Both the position numbers and the translations under genes were made by a program. DNA of 64,000 bases from Somniosus microcephalus (Eukaryota): positions 349,990,001-350,054,000 of the forward strand of contig CM126204.1 of assembly GCA_052327205.1 (NCBI GenBank), read 5' to 3'. The notes below the pieces were generated by a model that made no database searches, was not told the DNA's origin, and saw nothing but the letters and a program-made list of their open reading frames with translations. The number at the start of each line of letters is the position of its first letter. Within the stretch, counting starts at the first letter, position 1. Of the stretch, positions 9,338-34,997 are shown one piece after another.

Positions 9338-9558
9338 TGACGTAAGAAAACTACTAGGCACTTGGTCTGAGTATTAAACAAGGCTTTAATCAACTGTTTT
9401 TCAACACTAGTTGTGTCCTTCACTAGTTCCTGTTAAAGAATGTCCTGAGCAAGCTGGGCCCATGCCCAAGTATTTATACTCTCCCTGGACAGCACCACCA
9501 GCAGGCCGCCCAGTATTATTTCATAAGTCTTTCCACATGAATGACAAGATTCATGTCA
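9338..9558 (-). mobile_element. Solo LTR copy 1 (inside Harbinger Myb exon 3)
   Basis: TGAC...GTCA ends; near-identical to copies at 21520 and 28226 in reverse orientation; flanks gaggt/gagcc (degenerate 5-bp TSD). Confidence 0.85.
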
Positions 9559-10622
9559 GAGCCTTTGCCATCTGTTGTCCATAGCTAACATCTACTCATG
9601 CGAGTGGCGCATTAGCTGCTCCATGCAGGTGGCCATCCTTTCCATGGAAGAGCCTACAGTCACCATCGCCTGTGACACGGTGGTGCTCATGTTGGAGATG
9701 GACTCCTCCATTCTCTGCACATTTTCAGACATCGAGGCTGCAAAACCTGCCAGAGCCTCCTCCATTTCTTGCTGCCCCTCCAGGATCGCCCTCTTTCTCG
9801 ATGGTCCCCGAGGCTCAGCGTCTGCATGCAGCTGAGCAGAGCTTGGAGCGTCCTGCGCCCTGCAGCGCGGAGTCTCCACTGCTGTTCCTGTTAACACCAC
9901 CTGCTCTTGCTCACTTGTGACTTGTGAGACACCAGGTGACAACACTACTCTATCTCCCACAGGACTCACCGAGGTGTGTGTATCTGTGCTGGTGCTGTGT
10001 GCGCTTGGGTCTGCTGACGGTGCACCCTCAGAGACTGGAGGCTCCTCTGAGGAGTCGTCTTCCTTCTCCGGCTGGACAGTGGAGGGGGGCAGGGGCACTC
10101 ATGGTGGACCTGTGGGAGAGTAAAGAGATGATTTAGAAATGTTATATTAAGAATGGGTAACAATACCATTATGCACATGATGAACATTCACTGGCTGCTG
10201 ACGTCAGTCACCATATGAGTGACTGCTGTATGCCATGTGGCTGTATGAGATGTAGTTCTGTCACCAGGTTGCTGAGGGGTCCCCCTCTCTCCGTCTCCCA
10301 CCGCCAGCAGCTCTGCAACGCTTGAGACCTCCAGGGCCACCTCCTCTGCTGGAGTTAAAGTGCTGAAGGATGGAGGGCCACCTCCGGTTCTCTCCCTCTC
10401 CCTGTTGTTGTGCACGCTCCTCTCCTGCAAGGAGGGAAAGAAGAGAAGTTTGAGTGAGAGTGATGGCATGAATGTAAGGATTGTGTGGGTTACATCTGTA
10501 GAGGGTGACTATGAGGGAATGTGGTGCCAATGCCAAATAGTCTCCTTTTGTGGTGTTACTTGGTACGATTGCCTTAGGATGAGGGTGAGTGTGAGGGGTG
10601 GTTAGTCAGAGGGGGATGTGAG

Positions 10623-10848
10623 TGATGTAAACAGACTACTGAGCACTTGGTGTGAGTATAAAACAAGGCTTTAATCAACTGTTTCAAAACCATGAGATTC
10701 TAGTTACATCACTAGTTCCTGGTTACAGAAACATCCTGAGCAAGCTGGGCCCACGCCTAAGTATTTATACTCCTTGGACGGCGCCACCAGCTGGCCGCCC
10801 AGTGTTATTTCATGAGTCATTTCTTCATGAATGATAAGATTCATGACA
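10623..10848 (-). mobile_element. Solo LTR copy 2 (diverged subfamily, in Harbinger Myb intron 1)
   Basis: TG...CA ends; shares aaacaaggctttaatcaactgttt and cctgagcaagctgggccca with copy 1; flanks gtgag/gagag (4/5 TSD). Confidence 0.85.
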
Positions 10849-11309
10849 GAGAGTATGTACACAGAGAGAGAGGGATGGGTGGACGTGCAAGATATGTTGG
10901 TGTGAGTAATGATGTGCAGGAGCAGGATAGGGAAGGCAGAGTGATGGGGATGTGGTGACAGGCACAGCAGGATGAGGGTGAGTGTGGCTTTGTACTCACC
11001 TTTCATCAGACCATTGAAGCGCTTCCGGCACTGCACACAGTTCTGCCTCACCACATCCCTACTATTCATGTCCTCAGCTATTTGGAGCCAGGTTCTTGGG
11101 TAGGTCTCTTCTGCCCATCAGCAGGGAAGAGGACCTCCCTGCGTGCTCTGGTTCCCTCCACGAGAATATGTAGGGAGTCATCGGAAAACCTGGGTGCAGC
11201 CCGCTGCCTTTGGAAAGTCATGTTTAGAAATCTCAGCAATAACAAGATCCTCCAATATACTCCCTCCACGTTACTGAACGAACCTTCAAATGCCATCCGG
11301 CCAAGGCTG

Positions 11310-12190: not shown

Positions 12191-12668
12191 TCGTGCGCTG
12201 GAATACCAATGTATGGCTCGGTGAAGTGGTGGGACACATGCTCGATTCCTCAGTTCAGCCAAACCACTATGAGTGAGCAAAGGCTGGACACCTTCTGCAG
12301 TAGGGGAGGGAGATGTTACAAAATCACTCTCACACATCTGTCAGAACTGACTGAAGCGTGGCATTGGCGGAGGTTGGGAAGAGGTTGATTTCCATAGTCT
12401 GTGCTGCAAGAAGACCACGAATGTGGGGTGGAAGCCAGAAGGTAATATATTCTCAAAAGGGAAGGTACGTAAATCATTTGCGCCATTAAAGCTACACTGT
12501 ATATAAACAGTACTATGCTATAGGGGCTACGTGATGTAGTGGAGATTGGTTTAATGTTGTTCAGTTCACCTGAGATGCAACGACAGCCTAATGAAGGCAA
12601 GAGGGTGTACCACAACGGTGGAGTATATTCCTGCAATGAAGCAAAAATGCCACACTGGAGGTCACCAT

Positions 12669-13082
12669 TAATGAACAAGGACACAAGGGTGATGGGCGAA
12701 CGGGACTTGGTGCGAGTTAGGATACGGGCAGCAGAGTTTCTGGATGAGCTCAAGCTCATGGAGGGTGCGAGGTGGGAGGCCGGCCAGGAGTGCATTGGAA
12801 TAGTCGAATCTAGAGGTAACAAAGGCATGGATGAGGGTTTCAACAGCTGAGGAGCTGAGGCAGGTGCTGAATAGGGTGATGTTCCGGAGCTGGAAGTAGG
12901 CGGTCTTGGTGGTGGAGTGGATATGGGGTTGGAAGCTCAGCTCGGGGTCAAATATGACACCATGGTTACAAACAGTCTGGTTCAGCCACAGACAGTGGCC
13001 AGGGAGAGGAATGGGAGTCAGTGGCTTGGCAACGGAATTTGTGGCGGGGACCAAAGACAATGGCTTTAGACTTCCCAATATT
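12669..13082 (-). mobile_element. L2 LINE ORF2 fragment
   Basis: GVIFDPELSFQPHI..LSSSAVETLIHAFVTSRFDYSNALLAGLP; homologous to 34140-34997. Confidence 0.9.
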
Positions 13083-13556
13083 TAATATACCCATTGTGCT
13101 CATTCTCCCAATATGCATTCATCAGTATTAAATTTAATTTACCATTGGTCTGCCCAGCTGCATAACAGCTACAAATCCTTCTGCAAAACCTTAACCGCAT
13201 CCTTTGTCCCTGCTGCTCTCCTTATTTTAGCATCATCGGTGAATTTAACAACCTTACTGTCAGGATCAGTTGCTCTTCACACCCCCATGCCTTTAAAGAT
13301 GGTGGGTGTGTGCTGGATTCATTGAAAGTAAAGTGGAATGAAACACAGACAAAGTTCACTATTACGCTGACAGAAATAAGGAAACTCCTCCAGTATCATC
13401 ATTGGTGACATGTGCCATGCATGGAGATAATGAAACATGTCTTCCTTCCTTCAAGATGATATTGCCCCTGAAGAGAAGTGTAGGTCTTTGCAGTGTCCTG
13501 CTCTAGTAATTGGAATGGCCAAGAAAGACCCATGTCTTACCAGCTCAGGAAACACT

Positions 13557-14060
13557 GGGGTGAATTTTCACACCTCCTGCCTGATGAGTAGTGCCCAGAA
13601 ATTGGTGGGCAATGATCTACCAGCCCGCTGCCGCCATTGCTGCGGCCATGGCGATGTTCGCTGGGGCCTACCGCTGAGTCATGCACACTCCGATCAGTAT
13701 CAGCTGGCAGCCAGGATGAAGAGGATCCCAAAGGTAAGTTCTTCTTAATTTTCCTGGTGCCAGGAGGATCAAAAATAGTCCTCCAAGCTCCACAAAACCA
13801 GCCGGGACCACTGCATTCGGCTCCCCCCCCCCTCAGAGATTGGGCTCTCCCCTTTTATTACTTACCTTCCTCCGGCCCAAAGGCCGGCTAGGCCACCTGA
13901 TACCCTGGCAACCCAGAGCTGGTAGGTTGCCCAGCGTGCTCGATCTCTGGCCACAGCCGGTCGGCCCTATGCTAATGGGGCCCGGCCCTCAAAATATACC
14001 AGACCTCACGCTCGACCTCTGGCGCGTCCTGCTAGCCAACTGCCTGAAGTCCGCTCGGGG
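13557..14060. mobile_element. GC-rich non-autonomous DNA transposon remnant
   Basis: Begins ggggtgaattttca (same TIR style as other MITEs here); abrupt GC/CpG-rich block; right boundary unclear. Confidence 0.5.
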
Positions 14061-14201
14061 AATAAACAAACCTACAGGCTCTCAACTATGTGAGGGATAG
14101 AAGGGTTTACAGACAGGTGAATTTTCAGACAGTTTGAGTAGAACTAATAATGAATAATGTCTTACCAGATCGGTAATGTGGACCATATCATTGGTTGAAA
14201 C

Positions 14202-17200
14202 TTTTTTAAATTCATTTTTATGGGATGTGGGTGTCGCTGGCAAGGCCAGCATTTATTACCCATCCCTAATTGCCCTTGAGAAGGTGGTGGTGAGCCGCCT
14301 TCTTGAACCGCTGCAGTCTGTGTGGTGAAGGTACTCCCACAGAGCTGTTAGGTAGGGAGTTCCAGGATTTTGACCCAGCGACGATGAATGATCGGCGATA
14401 TACTTCTAAGTCAGGATGGTATGTGACTTGGAGGGGAACTTGGAGGTGGTGGTGTTCCCATGTATTTGCTGCCCTTGTTCATCTAAGTGGTAGAGGTCGC
14501 GGGTTTGGGAGGTGCTGCCGAAGAAGCCTTGGCGAGTTGCTGCAGTGCATCTTGTAGATGGTACACACTGCAGCCACGGTACGCCGGTGGTGGAGGGAGT
14601 GAATGTTAAAGGTGCTAGAGGGGGTACCAATCAAGCGGACTGCTTTGTCTTGGATGGTGTTGAGCTTCTTGAGTGTTGTTGGAGCTGCACTCATCCAGGC
14701 AAGTGGAGAGTATTCCATCACACTCCTTACTTGTGCCTTATAGATGGTAGAAAGGCTTTGGGGAGTCAGGAGGTGAGACACTCGCTGCAGAATACCTAGT
14801 CTCTGACCTGCTCTTGTAGCCACAGTATTTATGTGGCTGGTCCAGTTAAGTTTCTGGTCAATGGTGACCCCCAGGATGTTGATGGTGGGGGATTCGTTGA
14901 TGGTAATGCCATTGAATGTCAAGGGGCGGTGTTTAGACTCGCTTGTTGGAGATAGTCATTGCCTGGCACTTCTGTGGCGCGAATGTTACCTGCCACTTAT
15001 CAGCCCAAGCCTGAACATCGTCCGGGTCTTGTTGAATGCAGGCATGGACTACTTTATTATCTGAGGAGTTGTGAATGGCACTGAACACTGTGCAGTCATC
15101 AGCGAACATCCCCATTTCTGACCTTATGTTGGAGGGAAAGGTAATTGATGAAGCAGCTGAAGATGGTTGGGCCTTGGACACTGCTCTGAGGAACTCCTGC
15201 AGCGATGTCCTGGGGCTGTGATGATTGACCTTCAATCACCACAACAATCTTCCTTTGTGCTAGGTATGACGCCAGCCAGTGGAGAGTTTTTCCCCTGATT
15301 CCCATTGACTTCAGTTTTACTAGGGCTCCTTCATGCTACACTCGGTCAAATGCTGCCTTGATGTCAAGGGCAGTCACTCTCATCTCACGTCTGGAATTCA
15401 GCTCCTTTGTCCATGTTTGGACCAAGGCTGTAATGAGGTCAGCAGCCGAGTGGTCTTGGTGGAACCCAAATTGAGCATCAGTGAGCAGGTTATTGGTGAG
15501 TAAGTGCCACTTGATAACACTGTCGATGACACCTTCCATCACTTTGCTGATGATTGAGAGTAGACTGATGGGATGGTAATTGGCCGGATTGGATTTGTCC
15601 TGCTTTTTGTGGGGAGAGGACACACCTGGGCAGTTTTCCACATTGTCGAATAGATGCCAGTGTTGTAGCTGTACTGGAACAGTTTGGCTAGAGGTGTGGC
15701 TAGTTCTGAAGCATAAGTCTTCAGCACGATAGCCAAGATGTTGTCGGGGCACATAGCCTTTGCAGTATCCAGTGCACTTAGCCATTTCTTGATATCACGT
15801 GGAGTGAATCGAATTGGCTGAAGACTGGCTTCTGTGATGGTGGGGACCTCAGGAAGAGGCCGATATGGATCATCCACTCAGCACTTCTGGCTGAAGATGG
15901 TTGCAAATGCTTCAACCTTGTCTTTTGCACTCACGTGCTGGGCTCCACCATCATTGAGGATAGGGAAATTCATGGAGCCTCCTCCTCCCGTTAGTTGTTT
16001 AATGGTCCACCACCATTCACGACGGGATGTGGCAGGACTGCAGAGCTTTGATCTGATCTGTTGATTGTGGGATCGCTTAGCCCTGTCTATAGCATGCTAC
16101 TTCCGCTTTTTAGCATGCATGTAATCCTGTGTTGCAGCTTCCCCAGGTTGGCACCTCATTTTTAGGTGCGCCTGGTGCTGCTCCTGGCATGCTATTGTAC
16201 ACTCCTTATTGAACCAGGGTTGGTCCCCTGGCTTGATGGTAATGGTAGAGTGAGGGATATGCCGGGCCATGAGGTTACAGATTGTGGTGGAATACAATTC
16301 TGCTGCTGCTGATGGCCCACAGCGCCTCATGGATGCCCAGTTTTGAGCTGCTAGATCTGTTCTGAATCTATCCCATTGAGCATGGTGGTAGTGCCACACA
16401 ACACGATGGAGGGTGTCCTCAGTGTGAAGATGGGACTTCGTCTCCACAATGACTGTGCGGTGGTCACTGCTACCAATACTGTCATGGACAGATGCATCTG
16501 CGACAGGTAGTTTGGTGAGGACGAGGTCAAGTAGGTTTTTCCCTCAACACCTGTCGCAGGCCCAGACTGGCAGCTATGTCCTTCAGGACTCGACCAGCTC
16601 GGTCAGTAGTGGTGCTACTGAGCCACTCTTGGTGATGGACATTGAAGCCCCCCCACCCAGAGTACATTCTGCACCCTTGCTACTCTCAGTGCTTCTTCCA
16701 AGTGGTGTTCAACATGGAGGAGTACTGATTCATCAGCTGAGGGAGGGCGATAGGTGGTACTCAGCAGGAGGTTTCCTTGCCCATGCTTGACCTGAAGCCA
16801 TGAGACATCATGGGGTCTGGGGTCAATCTTGAGGACTCCCCAGGGCCACTCCTTCCTGACTGTATACCACTACCCCTGGTGGGTCTGTGCAGCCGGTGGG
16901 ACAGGACATACCCAGGGATGGTAAATGGAGGAGTTTGGTTGTAAAGGTATGATTCTGTGAGTATGACTATGTCAGGCTGTTGCTTGACTAGTGTGTAGGA
17001 CAGCTCTCCCAATTTTGGCACAAGTCCCCGGATGTTGGTGAGGAAGACTTTGCAGGGTTGACTGGGCTGGGTGTGCCGTTGCCGTGTCCGTAGCCGGTGC
17101 CAGGTGGTCAATGCCTTGTGGTCCATCCGGTTTCATTTTTATTATTTTGTTTCGTAGCGGTTTGTTACAACTGAATGGCTTGCTAGGCCATTTCAGAGGG

Positions 17201-17492
17201 CAGTTAAGAGTCAACCACATTGCTGTGGGTCTGGGGTCACACATAGGCCAGACCAGGTAAGGAGGGAAGATTTCCTTCCCTAAAGGGCATTAGTGAACCA
17301 GATGGGTTTTTACGACAATCCGATAGTTTCATGGTTGCCATTACTGATACTAGTAATTATTCCAGATTTATTTATTTAACTGAATTTAAATTCCCCAGCT
17401 GCCATGGTGGGATTTGAATTCACATCTCATGGATCATTAATCCAGGCCTCTGGATTACTAGCCCAGTGACATTACCACTATACTACTGTCCC
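14202..17492 (-). mobile_element. Apparently full-length single-ORF LINE (APE + RT) with tRNA-like 5' head; degenerate
   Basis: APE start VFLTNIRGLVPKLGEL..PDIVILTESYL; RT motifs NYHPISLLS, QFGF, ALDIKAAFDRV, GVPQSSVQGP, MFADD, LGVTIDQKLNW; A-rich 3' end near 14202-14218; A-box TAGTATAGTGG (17485-17475) and B-box-like AATTCAAATCC (17420-17410). Confidence 0.92.
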
Positions 17493-18702
17493 AATATACT
17501 GCTGTGTGTATGGATTATTGAATCATTAAGAAAAAGGAGGTTGAATCCAGAGAGGCTGCAGCTGTACCTCTGCTTCTTGACTGCCCACTGTTGATCAGGG
17601 GATGAAACGAACCAACTATTAATGTTACAAAGTCACTTCAGCACAAACACCATAGTATAAACGGACTATTCCCACCCAAGTGTCATTAGCATTTACTTCT
17701 TATCTGTCATACAACATTTTTGCAACCTTCACTTTTTCAATGATTGCACTTTCCTCTATACGGTTTAGCTTTCTTTTTCATTTTTTTCTTTTCATCCTTT
17801 TTCTGTTTTAACTCATCTGGAGTTATATTGATTTTTGTTGCTGGATTTCCAAAGGGCACAGCATCAATTAGGCTGTATACACAACAGATTCTTTGTCAGA
17901 TAGAGAGGCGAAGAGTGGGGCTGTTTAGTAAATGCAGGTACAGCGTAGATACTGAAAGATGTCTACCTGGTAAAGATACTAAGTAATCTCATGCTATGTG
18001 ATGTTCTCAGTCCCTTAACCATCTTCATTTGTTTTTTTATCAACCTGGATGTACAGTTTTGTGTACTCACGCTGCTGCTCTCTGCTCTTTGCCCCTGGAT
18101 ATCTGCCAGTAGGGGAACTGGAACGCAAGGGGTGAAGACTAGAGGTCAGCAGTGTGAGTACACAGAGACACGTTACTGAAATTCATCTCCGCTGTGAAAA
18201 CTTGAATATTTTCACAGTGGAGAGCCCTAGGAGAAGTAATTTTTTAAAATATAAAACAGATAAGGTTCTTTAGTTCCTACTTATAGGTTGGAGAAATAAC
18301 AATTATGTGACAACAGTGGAGCCCAGCAGCTTTAGTCTTATACATTGAGCTGAGGAATTAGATGTGATAATAAGATGGTTTCCACTCTACTGATAACTAT
18401 TCTCCAGGTTTCACAGACTGGTTCACACATTGCAGAGCACCCCAGGTAGTAAGGTTCAAGCAGCTATTCCTTTGTGCATCCCTTGTTTGCCGTGCACAAT
18501 CCGGAAGTTGATGTCGCTTGTTATTCTCTTCCCGCTGTTTGCCAATTTTTCCAGAGTTTGAATAGCTGGTGCTGCATAATAAATAAAAGATGTTGCATTG
18601 GGAACAATAGAATGTCCAGTTTGTTGTGTACTGTGCGTGACCTATAAAGGTTTTCTTCACTTGTAGAATAAACTGGATATCCCATTGTTCATCCCTAAGC
18701 AT

Positions 18703-19517
18703 TAGAGTCATAGAGTCATAGAGTTTTACAGCACAGAAAGAGGCCCTTCGGCCCATCGTGTCTGCGCCGCCCATCCATCCCTGTCCAGTCTAATCCCATT
18801 TTCCAGCATTTGGTCCATAGCCTTGTATGCAATGGCATTTCAAGTGCTCATCCAAATGCTTCTTGAATGTTGTGAGGGTTCCTGCCTCTACCACCCTTTC
18901 AGGCATTGAGTTCCACATTCCAACCACCCTCTGGGTGAAAAAGTTCCCCCTCAAATCCCCTCTAAATCTCCTGCCCCTTACCCTGAATCTATGCCCCCTT
19001 GTTATTGACCCCCCTACTAAGGGGAAAAGTTCCTCTTTGTCTACCCTATCTATGCCCCTCATCATTTTGTACACCTCAATCAGGTCCCCCCTCAGCCTTC
19101 TTTGCTCCAAGGAAAACAACCCCAGCCTGTCCAGCCTCTCTTCATAGCTGAGGCGCTCCATCCCAGGTAACGTCCTGGTGAATCTTCTCTGCACCCTCTC
19201 CAAAGCAATCACATCCTTCCTATAGTGAGGCGACCAGAACTGCACACAGTACTCCAGCTGTGGCCTCACCAGCGTTTTGTACAGTTCCATCATAACCTCC
19301 CTGCTCTTATATTCTATGCCTCGGCTAATGAAGGCAAGTATCCCATATGCCTTTTTAACCACCTTATCTACCTGTTCCGCTGCCTTCAGGGATCTATGTA
19401 CATGTACACCAAGGTCCCTCTGACCCTCTGTACTTCCTCGGGTCCTACCACTCATTGTGTATTCCCTTGCCTTATTTGTCCGTCCAAAATGCATCACCTC
19501 GCACTTTTCAGGGTTAA
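18703..19517 (-). mobile_element. CR1 (HER1-like) LINE 3' end, 5'-truncated, reading frame intact
   Basis: ORF 18790..19560(-) FNPEKCEVMHFG..LYKTLVRPQLEYCVQFWSP..FFTQRVVGMWN; 3' UTR gggccgaagggcct and (tagagtca)n tail. Confidence 0.95.
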
Positions 19518-19561
19518 AAGTGTGTAGAGCTGGTTTACAATGAATCGCTTTGAATTTCAAT

Positions 19562-19890
19562 GGCCCGGATTTTGCGGTGGGTACGGCGGTGTGAGTACAC
19601 CGTCATACCGCCTTTGAAATCCACCGCAAGTTCGGGATTTTCACATGAGCTTACGCATTCGCTAAATCCCAAACTTGCGGTCTGCCAGCGTAAGCGTTGA
19701 CAGGCCATCCGTTCCACCTCTGAAAACCTAGTTGCTGGCGCAGAGTTGGGCTATTTGCCCACCAACTGCCCAGCAATTACGCACGGAAATTTTACAGCTA
19801 GTGGAAGCAAGCGCAGGGCCTGTTTACACAACGTAAGGGGATACCCGAGATGATAAAAATGCTTTTTTTAAAATTAAATGATTTAAATTT
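19562..19890. mobile_element. One arm of a Harbinger-type MITE with subterminal hairpins
   Basis: Starts ggcccggattttgcggtggg, matching the reverse complement of 28740-28760; internal inverted repeat ccgcaagtt..aacttgcgg. Confidence 0.6.
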
Positions 19891-19914: not shown

Positions 19915-21125
19915 TATAGAAACATAGAAGATAGGAGAAGGAGTAGGCCATTCGGCCCCTCGAGCCTGCTCCACCATTCAATGAGATCATGGCTGATCAT
20001 CCAAATTCAGTACCCTGTCCCTGCTTTCTCCCCATACCCCTTGATCCCTTTAGCCTTAAGAAATATATCCAACTCCTTCTTGAATATATTTAATGAACTG
20101 GCCTCCACCGCCCTCTGTGGCAGAGAATTCCACAGGTTCACCACTCTCTGGGTGAAGAAATTCCTCCTCATCTCTGTCCTAAATGGCTTACCCCTTATCT
20201 TTAGACTGTGACCCCTGGTTCTGGACTCCCCCGCCATCAGGAACATCCTTCCTGCATCTAGTCTGTCTAGTCCTGTTAGAATTTTATAAGTTTCGATGAG
20301 ATCCCCTCTCATTCTTCTAAACTCCAGCGAGTATAAGCCCAATCGACCCAATCTCTCCTCATACGTCATTCCTGCCATCCCAGGTATCAGTCTGGTGAAT
20401 CTTCGCTGCACTCCCTCCATGGCAAGAACATCCTTCCTCAGATAAGGCGATCAGAACTGCACACAATACTCAAGGTGTGGTCTCACCAAGGCCCTGTACA
20501 ACTGCAGCAAGACATCCTTGTTCCTGTACTCGAATCCTCTCGCTACGAAGGCCAACATACCATTTGCCTTCTTAACCGCCTGCTGCACCTGCATGCTTAC
20601 CTTCAGCGACTGGTGCACAAGGACACCCAGGTCTCATTGTACTTCCCCTTCTCCCAATCTATTGCCGTTCAGATAATAATCTGCCTTCCTGTTTTTGCCA
20701 CCAAAGTGGATAACCTCACATTTATCCACATTATACTGCATCTGCCATGTATCTGCTCAATCACCCAACCTGTCCAAATCTTACTGGAGTTTCTCGGCAT
20801 CCTCCTCACAGCACACACGCCCACCCAGCTTTGTGTCATCTGCAAACTTGGAGATATTACATCTAGTTCCCTCGTCTAGATCATTTATATATATTGTGAA
20901 TAGCTTGGGTCCAAGGACCGATCCCTGCGGTACCCCACTAGTCACTGCCTGCCACTCGGAAAAAGACCCGTTTATTCCAACTCTTTGCTTCCCGTCTGCC
21001 AACCAGTTCTCTATCCAAGTTAGTACCTTGCCCCCAATCCCTTGTGCTTTAACTTTACACGCTAATCTCTTAAGCGGGACCTTATCGAAAGTCTTCTGAA
21101 AGTCCAAATACACCACATTCACTGG
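19915..21125 (-). mobile_element. CR1 LINE 3' 1.2 kb
   Basis: ORFs 20781..21122 ([30 protein letters not shown]) and 20007..20420; tagaaaca-type tail. Confidence 0.95.
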
Positions 21126-21316
21126 TATATTAAAGCTGTAGGTTCTTTTGAAAATATTTCATAACTTTCTGCACTGTGCACAGTATTTGTTTAGAAGTGG
21201 GAATGAAAATTAATAAATTGGATTCCCACGATAAAAGCTAAATCTGATAGTATTATAAAGGCTGTAGTAAGGAAGTATTGTGGTAATTTAAATGAATGAA
21301 AGACATCTGTTTTCTG

Positions 21317-21486: not shown

Positions 21487-21519
21487 TTGATTTTTTTCTG
21501 AAAATTTCTAAATGGTTAT

Positions 21520-21747
21520 TGACATGAATCTTGTCATTCATGTGGAAAGACTTATGAAATGATACTGGGCAGCCTGCTGGTGGCACTGTCCAGGGAGAGT
21601 ATAAATACTCGGGCATGGGCCCAGCTTGCTCAGGACATTCTTTAACAGGAACTAGTGAAGGACACAACTAGATCTCCATGTTGAAAAACAGTTGATTAAA
21701 GCCTTGTTTAATACTCAGACCAAGTGCCTAGTAGTTTTCTTACGTCA
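21520..21747 (+). mobile_element. Solo LTR copy 3
   Basis: TGAC...GTCA; TATAAATA and ATTAAA in LTR order; flanks gttat/gtcat (4/5 TSD). Confidence 0.9.
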
Positions 21748-22504: not shown

Positions 22505-24690
22505 ACGAAATGTAGGGAAGGAAAAAAGAAAAGGGGGTGTGGCAGTATTGATCAAGGAAAATATTGCAGTTCTACAGAGGGATGATATACCAGACAGTTC
22601 AAAGACTGAATCTATTTGCTTAAAGTTAAGGAACAGAAAAGGAGCTGTTACACTGATCGGTGTTTATTATAGACACCCCAAATAGTGAGAAGGAGATAGA
22701 GAAGCAAATCTGTAAGCAAATTTCAGAAAATGTAAAAATAATAGAGCAGTAGGGGACCTCAATTACCCTAATATAGACTGAGAAAAACAGTAAAGAGGGT
22801 GACAAATTCCTAAAATATGTACAGGAGAACTTCCTTAATCAGTATGTTTCTAGCCCAATGTGGAAGGAAGCAGTGCTGGATCTAGTTCTAGCGAACAATG
22901 TTGGGCAAGTGGAGTGTGTTTCAGTGGGAGAACATCCGGGTAATGATGATTTTTTTTTATTCGTTCATGGGATGTGGGCGTTGCTGGCAAAGCCAGCATT
23001 TATTGCCCATCCCTAATTGCCCTCGAGAAGGTGGTGGTGAGCCACCTTCTTGAATACAACTGAGTGGCTTGCTAGGTCATTTCAGAGGGCAGTTAAGAGT
23101 CAACCACATTGCTGTTGGTCTGGAGGCACATACCGGCCAGACCGGGTAAGGGTGGCAGATTTCCTTCCCTAAAGGACATTAGTGAACCAGATGAGTTTTT
23201 TTATGACAATCCGGTAGTTTCACAGTCACCATTACTGATACTACCTTTTTATTCCAGGTTTATTTAATTGAATTTAAATTCCCCAGCTGCTGTAGTGGGA
23301 TTTGAACTCATGTCTGCAGGATCATTAGTCCAGGCCTCTGGATTATAAGTTGAGTAACATAACCACCAAGTAGGCTTAAAGTAGTTACGGAAGGGGACAA
23401 AGAAAAATCAAAGGTGAAAACACCCAACTGGAAGATAGCCAATTTCAGTGATTTGAGGAGGATGGACTGGAAACAAAGATTGGCCAAGAAAACAGTAAAT
23501 GAGCAATGGCAGGCCTCCAAGGCAGAGATAGTTTGGGTACAAATCAAGCATATTTCCATAAGGAGGAAAGATAGGGCATCCAAAGCTAGAGCTCCTTGGA
23601 CGACAAAGGAAATAGAGATTAAAATAAAACAGACAAAGGAGGTTTATGACAAATGTCAGGTCCAGAATACAGTAGAAAACCAGGCAGAATACAGAGAGCA
23701 CAGAGGGAAATTGAAAAAGGATATAAGAAGGGCAAAGAGAGATTATGAGAAAAAATTAGTGGGTAACATAAAAGGGAACCCAAAAATCTTGTATAAACAT
23801 ATAAAAAGTAAAAGGAATGGTGGGGCCGATTAGGGACAAAGAAGGAAATCTTCTTGTGGAGGCTGTGGTCATGACTGAGGTACTGAATGAATACTTTGCA
23901 TCAGTCTTCACAAAAAACGAGGATGAAGTTAATGGCGCAGTAGAGGAGGAGGGAGTAGAGATATTGGATAGGATAAAAATAGATAGAAAAGAAGTGCTAA
24001 ATAGGTTGGCATCACTCAAAGTTAACAAGTCGCCTGGTCCAGATGGGATGCCTCCTAGGTTGCTGAGGGAAGCTAGGGTAGAGACAGCAGAAGCTCTGAC
24101 CACAATCTTTCAATCCTCCTTGGATGTGGGAGTGGTGGCAGAGGACTAGAGAACTGCAGATGTTACACCCCTGTTCAGAAAAGGAGAGAGAGAGATAAAC
24201 CTGGTAACTACAGGCCAGTCAGTCTAACATCAGTGGTGGGAAAACTACTAGAGACCATCGTCAGGGACAAAATTAATTCTCACTTGGAGAAGCATGGGTT
24301 AATAAGGGACAGCCAACACAGATATGTTAAAGGCAAATCGTGTCTGACTAAGCTGATTGAGTTCTTTGATGCAGGTAGTGCTGTAGCTGTTATATAGGTG
24401 GACTTTCAAAAGGAATTTGATAAAGTACCGCATAACCGTCTTATTTGGAAAATAGAAGCACATGGGATTAAAGGGATGGTGGTAACTTGGGTATGTAATT
24501 GATTAAGGGATAGGAGGCAGCGAGTTGTGGTGAATGGGTGTTTGTCTGACTGGAGAGATGTATGCAGTGGGGTCTGCAAGGAATCGGTATTAGGATCAAT
24601 GCTTTTCTTGTTATACATAAATGACCTGGACTTGGGTATAGGGAGAACAGTTTCAAAGTTTGTGTATGATACAAAACTTGGCAATGTAGT
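22505..24690 (+). mobile_element. Older CR1 ORF2 fragment (endonuclease to RT), interrupted by a SINE and truncated by an antisense CR1
   Basis: ORFs 23414..23833, 23817..24149 (LNEYFASVFT, KSPGPDGM), 24527..24712 (YINDLD..KFVYDTKLG). Confidence 0.9.
22950..23367 (-). mobile_element. tRNA-headed SINE equal to the 5' head plus 3' tail of the LINE at 14202-17492
   Basis: 22960-23055 matches 14211-14307; 23056-23367 matches 17166-17478; intact B-box AGTTCAAATCC (23308-23298); A-rich tail at 22950-22960. Confidence 0.92.
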
Positions 24691-27441
24691 ACATAGAAAC
24701 ATAGAAAAATAGAAACATAGAAACATAGGAGCAGGAGTAGGCCATTCGGTCCTTCGAGCCTGCTCCACCATTCAATATGATCATGGTTGATCCTCTATCT
24801 CAATACCACATTCCCACTCTCTCTCCATACCCCTTGATGCCTTTTGCATCTAGAAATCTATCTATCTCCTTCTTAAATATATTCAGTGACTTGGCCTCCA
24901 CAGCCTTCTGTGGTAGAGGATTCCACAGGTTCACCACTGTCTGAGTAAAAAAAATTCTCCTCATCTCAGTCCTAAATGTCCTACTCCGTATCCTGAGACT
25001 GTGACCCCTCGTTCTAGAGCCCCCAGCCAGGGGACACATCCTCCCTGCATCCAGTCTGTCTAGCCCTGTCAGAATTTTATATGTTTCAATGAGATCCCCT
25101 CTCATTCTTCTAAACACTAGTCAATACAGGCCAAGTCGACCCAATCTCTCCTCATGCGACAGTCCTGCCATCCCAGGAATCAGTCTGGTGAACCTTTGCT
25201 GCACTCCCTCTATGGTAAGTATATCCTTTCTTAGGTAAGGAGACCAAAACTGCACACAGTACTCCAGGTGTGGTCTCACCAAGACCCTGTATAACTGTAG
25301 TAAGACATCCTTGCTCCTGTACTCAAATCACCTTACAATGAAGGCCAACATACCACTTGCCTTCCTAACTGCTTGCTGCATCTGCATGTTTACTTTCAGT
25401 GACTGTTGTACAAGGACACCCAGGTCCCTTTGTACATCAACATTTCCCAATCTATCACCATTTAAATAATACTCTGCCTTTCTGTTTTTTCTACCGAAGT
25501 GGATAACTTCACATTTATCCACATTATACTGCATCTGCCATGTATTTGCCCACTCACTTAACTTGTCTAAATCGCCTTGAAGCCTCTTTGCATCCTCTTC
25601 ACAACTCACAATCCCACCTAGTTTCGTGTCGTCAGCAAACTTGGAAATATTACATTTGGTTCCCTCATCCAAATCATTGATAAATATTGTGAATAGCTGG
25701 GGCCCAAGCACTGATCCCTGCGGTACCCCACTAGTCACCACCTGCCACCCTGAGAAAGACCCATTTATTCCTACTCTCTGTTTCCTGTCTGTTAACCAAT
25801 TTTCAATCCATGCCAGTATATTACCCCCAATCCCATGTGCTTTAATTTTGCACACTAACCTCTTATGTGGGACTTTATCAAAGGCCTTCTGAAAATTCAA
25901 ATACACCACATCCACTGGTTCTCCCTTATCTATTCTCAGTTACATCCTCAAAAAACTCCAGTAGGTTTGTCAAACATAATTTCCTTTTCATAAATCCATG
26001 TTGACTTTGTCTAATCCCGTTGATATTTTCTAAGTGTCCTGTTATCACATCCTTTATAATAGACACTAGCATTTTTCCTACTACTGATGTTAGGCTAACT
26101 GGTCTGTAGTTCCCTGTTTTCTCTCTCCCTCCTTTTTTAAATAGTGGGGTTACATTTGCCACCCTCCAATTTGCAGGAACTGTTCCATAATCTATAGAAT
26201 TTGGGAAGATGACAATCAATGCATCCACTATTTCCATGGCTACCTCTTTTAGTACTCTGGGATGCAGATTATCAGACCCTGGGGATTTATTGGCTTTCAG
26301 TCCCATTAATTTCTCCAGCACTATTTTTTTACTAATACTAATTTCCTTTAATTCCTCCTTCTCACTAGACCCTTGGTTCCCTAGCATTTCTGGGAAGTTA
26401 TTTGTGTCCTCTCCCGTGAAGACAGAACCAAAGTATTTGTTTAATTGCGCTGCCATTTCTCCCGTTTCTGACTGTAAGAGACCTACATTTGTTTTCACTA
26501 ATCTTTTTCTTTTTACATACTTGTAGAAACTTTTACAGTCTGCTTTTATGTTCCTTGCAAGTTTACACTCATACTCTCTTTTTCCCCTCTTAATCAATCT
26601 CTTGGTCCTTTTTTGCTGAACTCTAAACTGTTCCCAATCCTCAGGCTTGCTACTTTTTCTGGCAACTTTATATGATTCCTCTTTGGATCTAATAAGGAAA
26701 CTCTCTTTTAACCGGCACCTAAATTATCCGGAAATCTCTCTTAACCGGCAAAATTCAGGAGTAGGTTCAGGTAAGTTTGACTATATATTAGTGGCCTTGC
26801 AACCGGGGGTTCCTGGATCTGTAGCCGTGTAACCGGGGCTCCTGCACCTGTGGCCGTGCAACAGGGACTCCTGGATCTGTGGCCGTGTAACCGGGACTTC
26901 TACGCACGTGCCGTGTAAATGGGGCTCCTGCACCTGTGGCCGTGTACGGGGCTCTCGTACCTCGGTAAGTATACCTCTCTGTAATCCGGACCTTTTGATC
27001 AACCGGCACCACGCCGGTCCCGTCGGTGCCAGATAAAAAAGAGTTTCTTGTACTATCCTTAATTTCTTTTGTTAGCCATGGTTGGGATCCTTTTCCTTTT
27101 GTGTTTTGGCGCCAGAAAGGAATGTATAACTGTTGCAATTCATGTATTTGTTCCTTAAATGTTAGCCATTGCCTGTCCACCATCATGCCTTTTAATGAAG
27201 CTCCCCAATCTATCATAGCCAACTCCCTCCTCATACCTTCGTAGTTTCCTTTGTTTAGATTTAGGACCCTAGTTTCGGATTGGACGACTTCACTTTCCAT
27301 CTTAATGAAGAATTCTATCATGTTATGGTCACTCTTCCCTAAAGGACCCCGCACAACAAGATTATTAATTAACCCCTTCTCATTGCACAATACCCGATCT
27401 AGGATAGCCTGTTCCCTAGTCGGCTCCTCAACATACTGGTC
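24691..27441 (-). mobile_element. CR1 LINE, ~2.4 kb of ORF2 plus 3' end, containing a MITE insertion
   Basis: ORFs 26788..27390 (LGKSDHNMIEF), 25926..26597 (NYRPVSLTS), 25328..25915 (KFADDTK), 24800..25117; (tagaaaca)n tail at 24691-24728. Confidence 0.95.
26695..27050. mobile_element. Tc1/mariner (pogo/Tigger-like) MITE with internal minisatellite
   Basis: TA duplicated at 26693-26694 and 27051-27052; TIR aggaaactctcttttaaccggcac vs caagaaactcttttttatctggcac; removing it rejoins the CR1 sequence ggatctaata|ctatcc. Confidence 0.88.
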
Positions 27442-27737: not shown

Positions 27738-28760
27738 GTTCCAGTTATTTGCAGTCAGCGGCGAAGCAAAGGCGCTCGCTGCTGACCCCGAAGAAAGCTG
27801 CCCACAAAGATCTCGCGAATTCTGTGGCGAGAAGTTTGGCTTTTCCAACGTTCAGTTGAGATCAGTGTAAGTTAATGGGGAATCCCTAACGCGAGCTGCT
27901 GTGATGTCAACAAGCTGTCATAAGCAGCCAATCACAATGCAGAATTCTCACAGACAGCAAACCAGGAAGTGAAGAAGCTCCTTTTATTCTGACTTTTAAA
28001 AAATGTTGTAGAGAGCAAAACAAAGATTGATGCTCTCACATGGGGAAAAGGTAAACCTGAAATAAATATCAACAAACCTTTTTTTAAATATAATTTTTTT
28101 TAACTTAAAAATTTCAATTTTATTAATAAGGGAGAAATTTGAAACTTCGCAAAATTAAAATGAGCTTTTCTGGGTCATAACGTTTGTTTAGCAGTCAATA
28201 CGCTGTTAAAACCCCAGTTACACTTTGACATGAATCTTGTCATTCATGTGGAAATGACTTATGAAATAATACTTGGCAGCCTGCTGGTGGCGCTGTCCAG
28301 GGAGAGTATAAATACTCGGGCACGGGCCCAGCTTGCTCAGGACATTCTTTAACAGGAACTAGTGAAGGACACAACTAGATCTCCATGTTGAAAAACAGTT
28401 GATTAAAGCCTTGTTTAATACTCAGACCAAGTGCCTAGTAGTTTTCTAATGTCACACTTAATCCAACAAGGCCTAACTTTTAATGGGGAAATTAACAGCG
28501 ATGTTACCGCAGAAAAGCCCAAGTATTTGTCAGTTTCACTGATTTCCCTGATTACACTGATTGCCGGCTCTGTTGGGAGGTGGGGGGGAGGGGGGCCACA
28601 GCGCAGCCAGTGTCGGAGCAGTGAATGACTGATCGCAACTTCAGGATTTTCCTGTTAGGATGCGCATGCGCTACATCCTGAAGTTGCGGTCAGTTTCAAA
28701 GGGGTAATGACAGCGAACGCTATTCATTCGCTGTTATTACCCACCGTAAATTCCGGGACC
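27738..28760. mobile_element. Harbinger-type non-autonomous element (~0.8 kb without the LTR)
   Basis: Degenerate TIRs gttccagttatttgcagt and accgtaaattccgggacc; subterminal hairpins cgcaacttcaggat..atcctgaagttgcg and gtaatgacagcgaa..ttcgctgttattac. Confidence 0.65.
28226..28454 (+). mobile_element. Solo LTR copy 4
   Basis: TGACA...TGTCA ends; perfect 5-bp TSD CACTT (28221-28225, 28455-28459); TATAAATA 28307-28314; ATTAAA 28402-28407. Confidence 0.93.
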
Positions 28761-33775: not shown

Positions 33776-33940
33776 CCGAGTTGAATTTCTTAATAGAAAA
33801 GTAATTCTTGATTAACATTGCTCTTTATTTGGTACTCACTGGCCATTTGATCGACAACTTTGTAAAACGTGAAATGTTGTTCTTTAGACTTGTATTTTTG
33901 AATAACCTGCAAACTTGTCAGAGTTTTTAATTATTATTTT

Positions 33941-34068
33941 ATAGAATCATAAAATCATACAGCACAGAAGGAGGCCATTGGGCCTATCGTGTCTTTGAAA
34001 GAGCTATCCAATTAGTCCCACTCTCCTGCTAGTTCCCCATAGCCCTGCAAATTTCTCCTTTTCATGTA
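33941..34068 (-). mobile_element. CR1 3' tail
   Basis: atagaatcataaaatcatacagcacagaaggaggccatt. Confidence 0.75.
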
Positions 34069-34139
34069 TATTTTATTAAATTGTTTCCAGTTAAGTTACA
34101 GGAATTGCTAACATGCAATGCAGCTCACATGTACTTCCG

Positions 34140-34997
34140 GTACTGGATGAACAGAAATTTCCTCCAATTAAATACTGGGAAGACCGAAGCCATTGTCTTC
34201 GGTCCCTGCCACAAACTCCGTTTCCTAGCCACCGACTCCAGCCCTTTCCCCGGCAACTCTCTGAGGCTGAACCAGACTGTTTGCAACCTTGGTGTCAAAT
34301 TTGACCCCGAAATGAGCTTCTGACCACATATCCGCGCTGCCATTAAGACTGCCTATTTCCATCTCCATAACATCATCCAACTTCACCCCAGCCTCAGCTC
34401 ATCTGCTGCTGAAACCCTCATCCATGCCCTTGTTACCTCTAGACTTGACTATTCCAACGCACTCCTGGCTGGCCTCCCACATTCTACCCTACGTAAACTT
34501 GAGGTCATCCAAAACTCTGCTGCCCGTGTCCTAACTCGCACCAAGTCCTGTTCACCCATCACCCCTGTGCTCGCTGACTTATGTTGGCTCCTGGTTAAGC
34601 AACGCCTTGATTTAAAAATTCTTATCTTTGTTTTCAAATCCCTCCATGGCCTTGCCCCTCCCTATCTCTGTAATTTCCTCCAGAGCCCTACAACCCCCCA
34701 CGATATCTGCACTTCTCTAATTCTGCCCTCTTGAGCATCCCTGATTATAATCGCTCAACCATTGGCGACCGTGCATTCAGCTGGCTAGGCCCTAAGCTCT
34801 GGAATTCCCTCCCTAAACCTCTTCACCTCTCTACCTCTCTTTCCTCCTTTAAGACGCTCCTTAAAACCTACCTCTTTGACCAAGCTTTTGATCATCTGCC
34901 TTATGTGGCTCGGTGTCAAATTTTGTTTCATAACGCTCCTGTGAAGCGCCTTGGGATGTTTTACTATGTTAAAGGCGCTATATAAATGCAAGTTGTC
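34140..34997 (+). mobile_element. L2 LINE 3' end
   Basis: WMNRNFLQLNTGKTE, LGVKFDPEMSF, ETLIHALVTSRLDYSN, GDRAFSWLGPKLWNSLP, FKTLLKTYLF; ends aaaggcgctatataaatgcaagttg. Confidence 0.93.

Follow-up and report, generated by a model that had tools for sequence, protein, structure and literature searches.

SINEs and LINEs are separated by the polymerase that transcribes them and by their coding capacity, and the A and B boxes usual in SINEs are internal polymerase III (Pol III) promoters. In the bipartite model of Kojima 2018 (PMC5786205), as set out in the accessible text, a head is joined to a LINE that has undergone deletion and does not code for protein, bodies come from RTE and Vingi alone, and SINEs cannot encode protein. 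As for LINEs of the CR1 group, the accessible parts of the relevant papers report Zenon from sharks, rays, coelacanth and hagfish, in every case lacking ORF1 and ending in a poly-A tail (PMC13343379), and name CR1-Zenon as a SINE partner in bivalves via 3′ tails only (PMC11481361). Pol III is halted by runs of at least four T, subject to context effects, according to the accessible portion of PMC4758252.

We analysed a 64,000-nt stretch of DNA (hereafter the window), in which the minus strand at 17492-14202 carries a broken 3.29-kb APE-RT LINE that has no ORF1 and starts with a tRNA-like head. The features of this element, and of a shorter relative nearby, are as follows.

14202 to 17492, minus strand: near full-length, decayed copy of an elasmobranch Zenon (CR1-group) LINE, 3,291 nt, delimited by head similarity and contig depth.
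17406 to 17492, minus strand: tRNA-like head (cmscan tRNA, 15.7 bits, E 3.8) whose extra arm is long, also found in 7/7 elasmobranch Zenon consensuses.
17475 to 17485, minus strand: A box, eroded in this copy; its start reads TGGC or TAGC in the consensuses.
17410 to 17421, minus strand: B box, eroded in this copy; GGTTCGAATCC in three of the seven consensuses (CarCar, RhiTyp, ScyCan).
17166 to 17405, minus strand: body, neither Deu nor Meta, common to the short form (head plus body 84% over 316 nt to 23366-23055).
17088 to 17165, minus strand: LINE-specific A-rich linker (by eye, 29-37 nt long in the consensuses), conserved AUG at 17136 and Arg-rich leader.
14266 to 17130, minus strand: broken single APE-RT ORF of about 950 codons, with APE at ~17051-16460 and RT at ~15600-14900 including a FADD motif; the frame breaks at least 6 times and contains 4 stops.
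14202 to 14307, minus strand: 3′ tail with the last ~13 codons, 3′ UTR, A-rich end and stem-loops, common to the short form (89% over 106 nt to 23054-22951).
22951 to 23366, minus strand: short non-coding form of 416 bp, head plus body directly onto the tail, a type of joint also present in public contigs.

Judged by its sequence, the element is an elasmobranch Zenon LINE, present here as a dead copy. It displays the single APE-RT ORF, lack of ORF1, poly-A tail and high identity to a published consensus by which Zenon is recognized, a definition that we took from the accessible part of PMC13343379. By eye, its first ~400 nt are ~92-93% like SquAca_Zenon-1 (3,314 nt), with ~24 substitutions and 6 gap positions in ~400 columns. 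The family assignment is based on these features and on this consensus likeness. The depth of public contigs over the element covers 14218-17521 and is ~0 outside. The first-pass annotation had suspected that the element might already be catalogued, and indeed the Zenon family of elasmobranchs has been, within the CR1 group, in PMC13343379. That annotation also allowed for longer copies with an ORF1 upstream of the endonuclease; all seven published elasmobranch consensuses leave no room for one, as far as their visible 5′ ends go, and neither do the ~400 nt upstream of the APE-RT frame in the window copy. The absence of ORF1 is normal for Zenon and no consequence of head capture. While the family itself is known, its tRNA head, and the likely use of this head by Pol III, were not found in print. 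The terms “tRNA” and “polymerase III” occur 0 times in the main text of PMC13343379, as accessible, so that both the head and the TTTT avoidance reported below are undescribed there. In a search of the openly accessible literature, no account turned up of a Zenon that carries a tRNA head or is driven by Pol III. The junction pattern had 0 matches in metagenome contigs, the body motifs had 0 in viral, metagenome and prokaryote contigs, and a protein search of viral contigs gave 23 candidates, 0 of them confirmed. Our best explanation, to which we assign a probability of roughly 0.6, is an elasmobranch Zenon with a tRNA-derived 5′ end that was gained before the shark-ray split, is driven by Pol III and moved as a unit.

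As for the head, the three signals named in the first-pass annotation are present on the minus strand: an A-box-like TAGTATAGTGG beginning at 17485 (17485-17475), a hairpin taatccag..ctggatta (17457-17438) and a B-box-like GAATTCAAATCC beginning at 17421 (17421-17410). The hairpin, however, is perfect in the window copy only, and in a cloverleaf its two halves fall into different arms, the anticodon arm and the extra arm. The anticodon arm of the head spans 17466-17450, with the loop triplet AGT. The fit of 17486-17406 to the cmscan tRNA model is weak (15.7 bits against a gathering threshold of 29) and includes 23 inserted nt at the variable arm, and ARAGORN reports 0 tRNA genes in the 64-kb window. 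By these scores, the head of this copy, taken alone, is without significance as a tRNA; the family consensuses carry better boxes. The tRNA-derived head with A and B boxes that characterizes SINE2 is discernible, weakly in the window copy (E 3.8) and more clearly in the accessible consensuses, while the short, non-coding nature of a SINE2 belongs only to 23366-22951 and not to a 3.3-kb element with an APE-RT ORF. The head alone folds no better than shuffled sequences (z 0.18), and the whole leader weakly better (z −2.14, 3/100). Its long extra arm makes the head, we assume, tRNA-Leu-like, and the element presumably resembles the salmonid SlmI (tRNA-Leu head, RSg-1 tail). In one sequencing run (X1), 8 contigs contain a backward joint of 37 nt at the 5′ end of the head (17450-17486), as would be expected if the organism concerned has a subfamily in which part of the tRNA head is duplicated.

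The body that follows may represent the 5′ UTR that Zenon had ancestrally, or else a SINE body not yet described. Two candidate labels, SacSINE1/Deu and MetaSINE, were dropped because the body is unlike the Deu and Meta alignments in the accessible Fig. S4 of PMC7245038. Even with as many as 3 mismatches allowed, the Deu core motif is not matched in 17166-17492 (5 chance-level matches elsewhere), and the core motif of the 66-bp Meta domain has no match in the element (1 chance-level match elsewhere). The accessible supplements of PMC4824008, PMC11481361 and PMC4758252 contain no match to the body motifs.

The published consensuses indicate that the head belongs to the family. We compared CarCar, HypSab, RhiTyp, ScyCan and SquAca-1, -2 and -3 (2,886-3,314 nt), of which Supplementary Table 2 of PMC13343379 was visible for the first 400 characters each. 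Within these 400 nt, the tRNA head and the same junction are found in 7/7 consensuses, from five species of sharks and a ray. In all seven the tRNA 5′ end is the starting point and the A box follows ~8-12 nt in, and A and B boxes are retained across sharks and the ray, the HypSab B box being degenerate in its consensus. The visible supplement text contains a 12-nt motif of the body 6 times, and it was noticed in six of the seven. Across the first 400 nt of the two hagfish and one coelacanth Zenon consensuses, the head is absent (0/3) and TTTT runs are present.

Public contigs, from 4 runs examined out of 24 listed, extend this picture. Depth declines ~10-20 fold from the 3′ end to the APE, which is as expected since LINE copies are 5′-truncated, persists through the head and falls to ~0 beyond 17521. 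In two large runs the summed head depth is only ~1.4-2 times the APE depth, a ratio that is not a copy number. One run (X16) has a 7-14-fold excess of head; that it consists of RNA is a guess, and the excess is no measure of expression. A raw-read run (X22) contributed 156 reads only and was uninformative. Among the contigs listed, one from another copy (37 differences in 223 nt) covers 17131-17353, i.e., reads across the junction. The first-pass annotation had asked whether other copies continue into the same head at the same junction, and the seven consensuses, over their first 400 nt, together with this independent contig answer that they do. The recurrent unit that it proposed, an ORF1-less LINE whose full-length form opens with a tRNA-derived head, is what all seven visible 5′ ends display. 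This shared arrangement shows, at the level of sequence comparison, that head, body and APE-RT ORF moved together as one 3.3-kb unit.

Avoidance of T4+ terminators on the sense strand had also been predicted, and the window copy conforms: there is no TTTT in 3,291 nt, compared with 16 such runs of A, 12 of C and 10 of G. This test, whose bearing on Pol III is indirect, covers one copy, the published consensuses being visible for their first 400 nt only. Mononucleotide shuffles give a mean of 5.26 TTTT (P 0.007), while dinucleotide shuffles give 2.39, from which the observed 0 does not differ significantly (P 0.083). When the protein is kept, 2.71 runs are expected with its codon usage (P 0.042) and 4.84 with the element's own fourfold-site composition (P 0.001); TTT runs, of which there are 8, are likewise fewer than the 14.8 (P 0.005) and 22.3 (0/2,000) of protein-keeping nulls. 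Considering both strands of the window, no stretch free of TTTT is longer than 13991-17531 (3,540 nt), which brackets the element; the next longest measures 1,356 nt. Five other LINE fragments of the window contain 14 sense-strand TTTT in 5,718 nt. The LINE fragments that served as TTTT controls, which we take to be CR1-like and L2-like, come from 18709-19602, 19916-21126, 24709-26690 (−), 23808-24667 (+), 12316-13086 (−) and 33940-34570. Under the protein-keeping approach, control LINE stretches have 9 TTTT in 3,588 nt against 12.7 and 13.5 expected (P ~0.1), which is slightly low but not absent. Inspected by eye, the best-supported 40 of 925 family differences include 20 that remove and 5 that add a sense-strand T, and none creates a run.

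Using intact homologues of 960-1,000 aa, tblastn traced APE-RT homology from ~17087 to 14272, and Pfam RVT_1 matched in 2 of 10 pieces scanned. The first-pass annotation was right that there is no ORF1 and, as regards type, that there is a single APE-RT ORF. Its frame, however, does not start near 17050 but reaches ~17130 via the Arg-rich leader, and it is broken here into 7 separate in-frame stretches with 4 stops. At three of these four stop positions most family contigs have another letter, which argues that the family ORF was open. Upstream of the coding frame, the window copy contains 12 AUGs. The AUG at 17136 is shared by six of the seven consensuses in their visible part, and its frame differs from that of the APE here and, judged by eye, in HypSab as well; an in-frame AUG at 17126 is private, since compared with SquAca-1 it takes one substitution plus an indel of 2 nt to create it. 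Plain cap scanning is therefore unlikely, given the 12 upstream AUGs and a conserved AUG out of frame with the APE. Within 17088-17136, the Arg-rich leader in the APE frame overlaps a ~50-codon out-of-frame ORF that starts at the conserved AUG, and translational coupling between the two is possible. A predicted 311-aa eukaryotic protein (P0001), in which an RGM-family part (PF06534) is fused to the Zenon leader and APE start, is probably a gene-prediction chimera.

Could Pol II, from an internal or flanking promoter, make the coding RNA of a family to which the head nonetheless belongs? The tRNA part would then be an RNA structure, a TFIIIC-bound element or a passenger, Pol III would serve short forms only, and T-poverty would be compositional. 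We regard this as a real but distinctly less likely possibility. The sense strand is T-poor overall (21%, TT observed/expected 0.76) and the dinucleotide null for TTTT is not significant, both as composition would have it, yet the absence of TTTT survives the protein and codon-usage nulls and coincides with the element boundaries. Pol II RNA is easier to translate, and an uncapped 3.3-kb RNA for a 950-aa protein needs a special mechanism, which counts against transcription by Pol III; the 12 upstream AUGs, on the other hand, speak against simple cap scanning of a Pol II transcript. An AATAAA at 14257 could serve Pol II polyadenylation. Comparing CarCar with SquAca-1 by eye, the visible extra-arm stem contains two two-sided and one one-sided pair-preserving changes, with one flanking pair broken, and this covariation hints at a role of the head at the RNA level. 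Short elements derived from lepidopteran Zenon are, in the accessible text of PMC6740152, without a Pol III promoter. By contrast, all seven elasmobranch consensuses open, in their visible part, with the 5′ end of the tRNA, and the A box follows close behind.

It is improbable that the head-bearing long form is a passenger chimera spread in trans by protein from a headless, or otherwise headed, master Zenon. Such a passenger would account for the scarcity of intact ORFs, which number 3/612, 0/2313, 1/1419, 1/294, 0/396 and 0/59 per copy set in the accessible table (the SquAca-1 cell is garbled), and for an in-frame AUG not being seen to be conserved, partly by eye and in the visible consensus starts. 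The seven consensuses, however, offer no alternative 5′ end over the part visible, no prominent loose end lies at the junction among the loose ends listed in public contigs, and the three stops that most family contigs do not share point to an ORF open in the family. Current activity is doubtful in any case, since nearly all Zenon copies are broken.

The two ends of the element also occur without its coding region. The A-rich end lies at 14221-14202, contigs of 3 runs have loose ends of poly-A type at 14217-14223, and the 3′ tail folds better than shuffled sequences (z −2.93, 0/200 as good), as does the tail of the short form at 23366-22951 (z −5.69). The latter has lost ~14 nt to erosion at its 5′ end; its B box is present and its A box eroded. 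It consists only of the 5′ and 3′ ends of its partner LINE, as do SIDEs of the Persaeus type, but differs from them in having a Pol III promoter, and it is not SacSINE1, since its body is neither Deu nor Meta. In public contigs, 8 of the 15 joint places listed (4,908 more exist) are head-to-tail, among them 14301/14307 to 17166, 14315 to 17159 and 14329 to 17152. Joints 14315 to 17159 and 14329 to 17152 retain LINE-specific linker bases, so at least some short forms descend from the long form. A TTCAA or TCAA repeat is found at the linker start of several consensuses, in their visible part, and at the tail start (14307). This repeat would fit deletion or template switching, and does not give the direction. 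From its composition, 23366-22951 is taken to be a SINE-shaped internal-deletion derivative. Four copies of an unrelated, AT-rich repeat of ~230 bp (9338-9561, 10619-10855, 21519-21747 and 28223-28454; 81-97% alike) also lie in the window; the one copy that was read shows no evident tRNA-like head. The idea that a SINE merely inserted beside a 5′-truncated LINE at this one locus, to which a free short form 5.5 kb away and the lack of any target-site duplication found around 14202-17492 to link both ends might lend colour, is refuted by the identical junction in 7/7 visible consensus starts from five species and in an independent contig, and the head at 17406-17492 is without a tail of its own, which leaves it a negligible probability.

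Returning to a Pol III-driven Zenon, the following course of events would account for the observations. A single-ORF Zenon would have gained its tRNA-derived 5′ end before sharks and rays split, most simply by the RT switching template onto a tRNA or a tRNA-SINE. The internal A and B boxes would then most likely power Pol III across the whole element and, because runs of at least four T halt Pol III, TTTT would have been purged from the sense strand, including the ORF. Every new full-length copy would bring its own promoter, as in SINEs, while the A-tail would be DNA-encoded and the RT would recognize the 3′ stem-loop, by analogy with other LINEs. Translation would be unusual, through internal or non-AUG initiation or a frameshift, given the many upstream AUGs and the conserved AUG that is out of frame. 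Internal deletion, leaving head and tail, would yield ready-made SINEs such as 23366-22951. That Pol III transcribes the full Zenon unit is, on the strength of the boxes and the T-run pattern, probable. The broader proposition, for which we see slightly better than even odds, is an autonomous protein-coding retrotransposon transcribed by Pol III, i.e., an “autonomous SINE” kept across sharks and rays, whose 950-codon ORF has been rewritten against terminators, whose uncapped RNA is translated without a conserved in-frame AUG, perhaps via the tRNA-like fold, and which gives birth to SINEs by internal deletion.

If true, a high-copy LINE lineage running on a tRNA promoter would break the split between SINEs and LINEs, and would be a natural example of a Pol III RNA that encodes a long protein. 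It would also let a LINE turn into a SINE directly, in one step, with the LINE's own 5′ UTR supplying head and body, and this route bears on the origin of SINE bodies. Repeat annotation will cut such elements into a SINE and a LINE.

Among described systems, the element is closest to the published elasmobranch Zenon (Stuart et al. 2026, PMC13343379), with which it shares the single ORF, lack of ORF1, poly-A tail and length of 2.9-3.3 kb, and from which, as far as that source is accessible, it does not differ in sequence type. It also resembles the Zenon elements of hagfish, coelacanth (CR1-5_LCh) and Lepidoptera, and the lepidopteran derivative Persaeus (accessible text of PMC6740152), in having a single ORF, a poly-A tail and short derivatives that combine the 5′ and 3′ ends, with a short direct repeat at the break. 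However, the three hagfish and coelacanth consensuses are without a tRNA head in their first 400 nt, and Persaeus is stated in that text to be without tRNA homology or a Pol III promoter. SINE2 elements with a LINE-type tail have the same succession of tRNA head with A and B boxes, body and LINE 3′ tail, which is exactly how the 416-bp form looks. In contrast to the Kojima 2018 model (PMC5786205, accessible text), the head here sits on the coding LINE itself, so a SINE would arise by deletion alone. RTE-1_DAn and elements related to it, as described in the same paper, are also LINEs containing a tRNA-like sequence, but belong to the RTE clade, a distinction drawn from that description only. 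SacSINE1, which occurs in sharks, DeuSINEs and MetaSINEs likewise have tRNA heads; those of MetaSINEs are tRNA-Thr-like, the loop triplet of the element being AGT, and the body of the element, unlike theirs, matches neither the Deu nor the Meta domain shown in the accessible Fig. S4 of PMC7245038. The element is the published elasmobranch Zenon, tRNA-SINE-like at its 5′ end, and by definition not a SINE.
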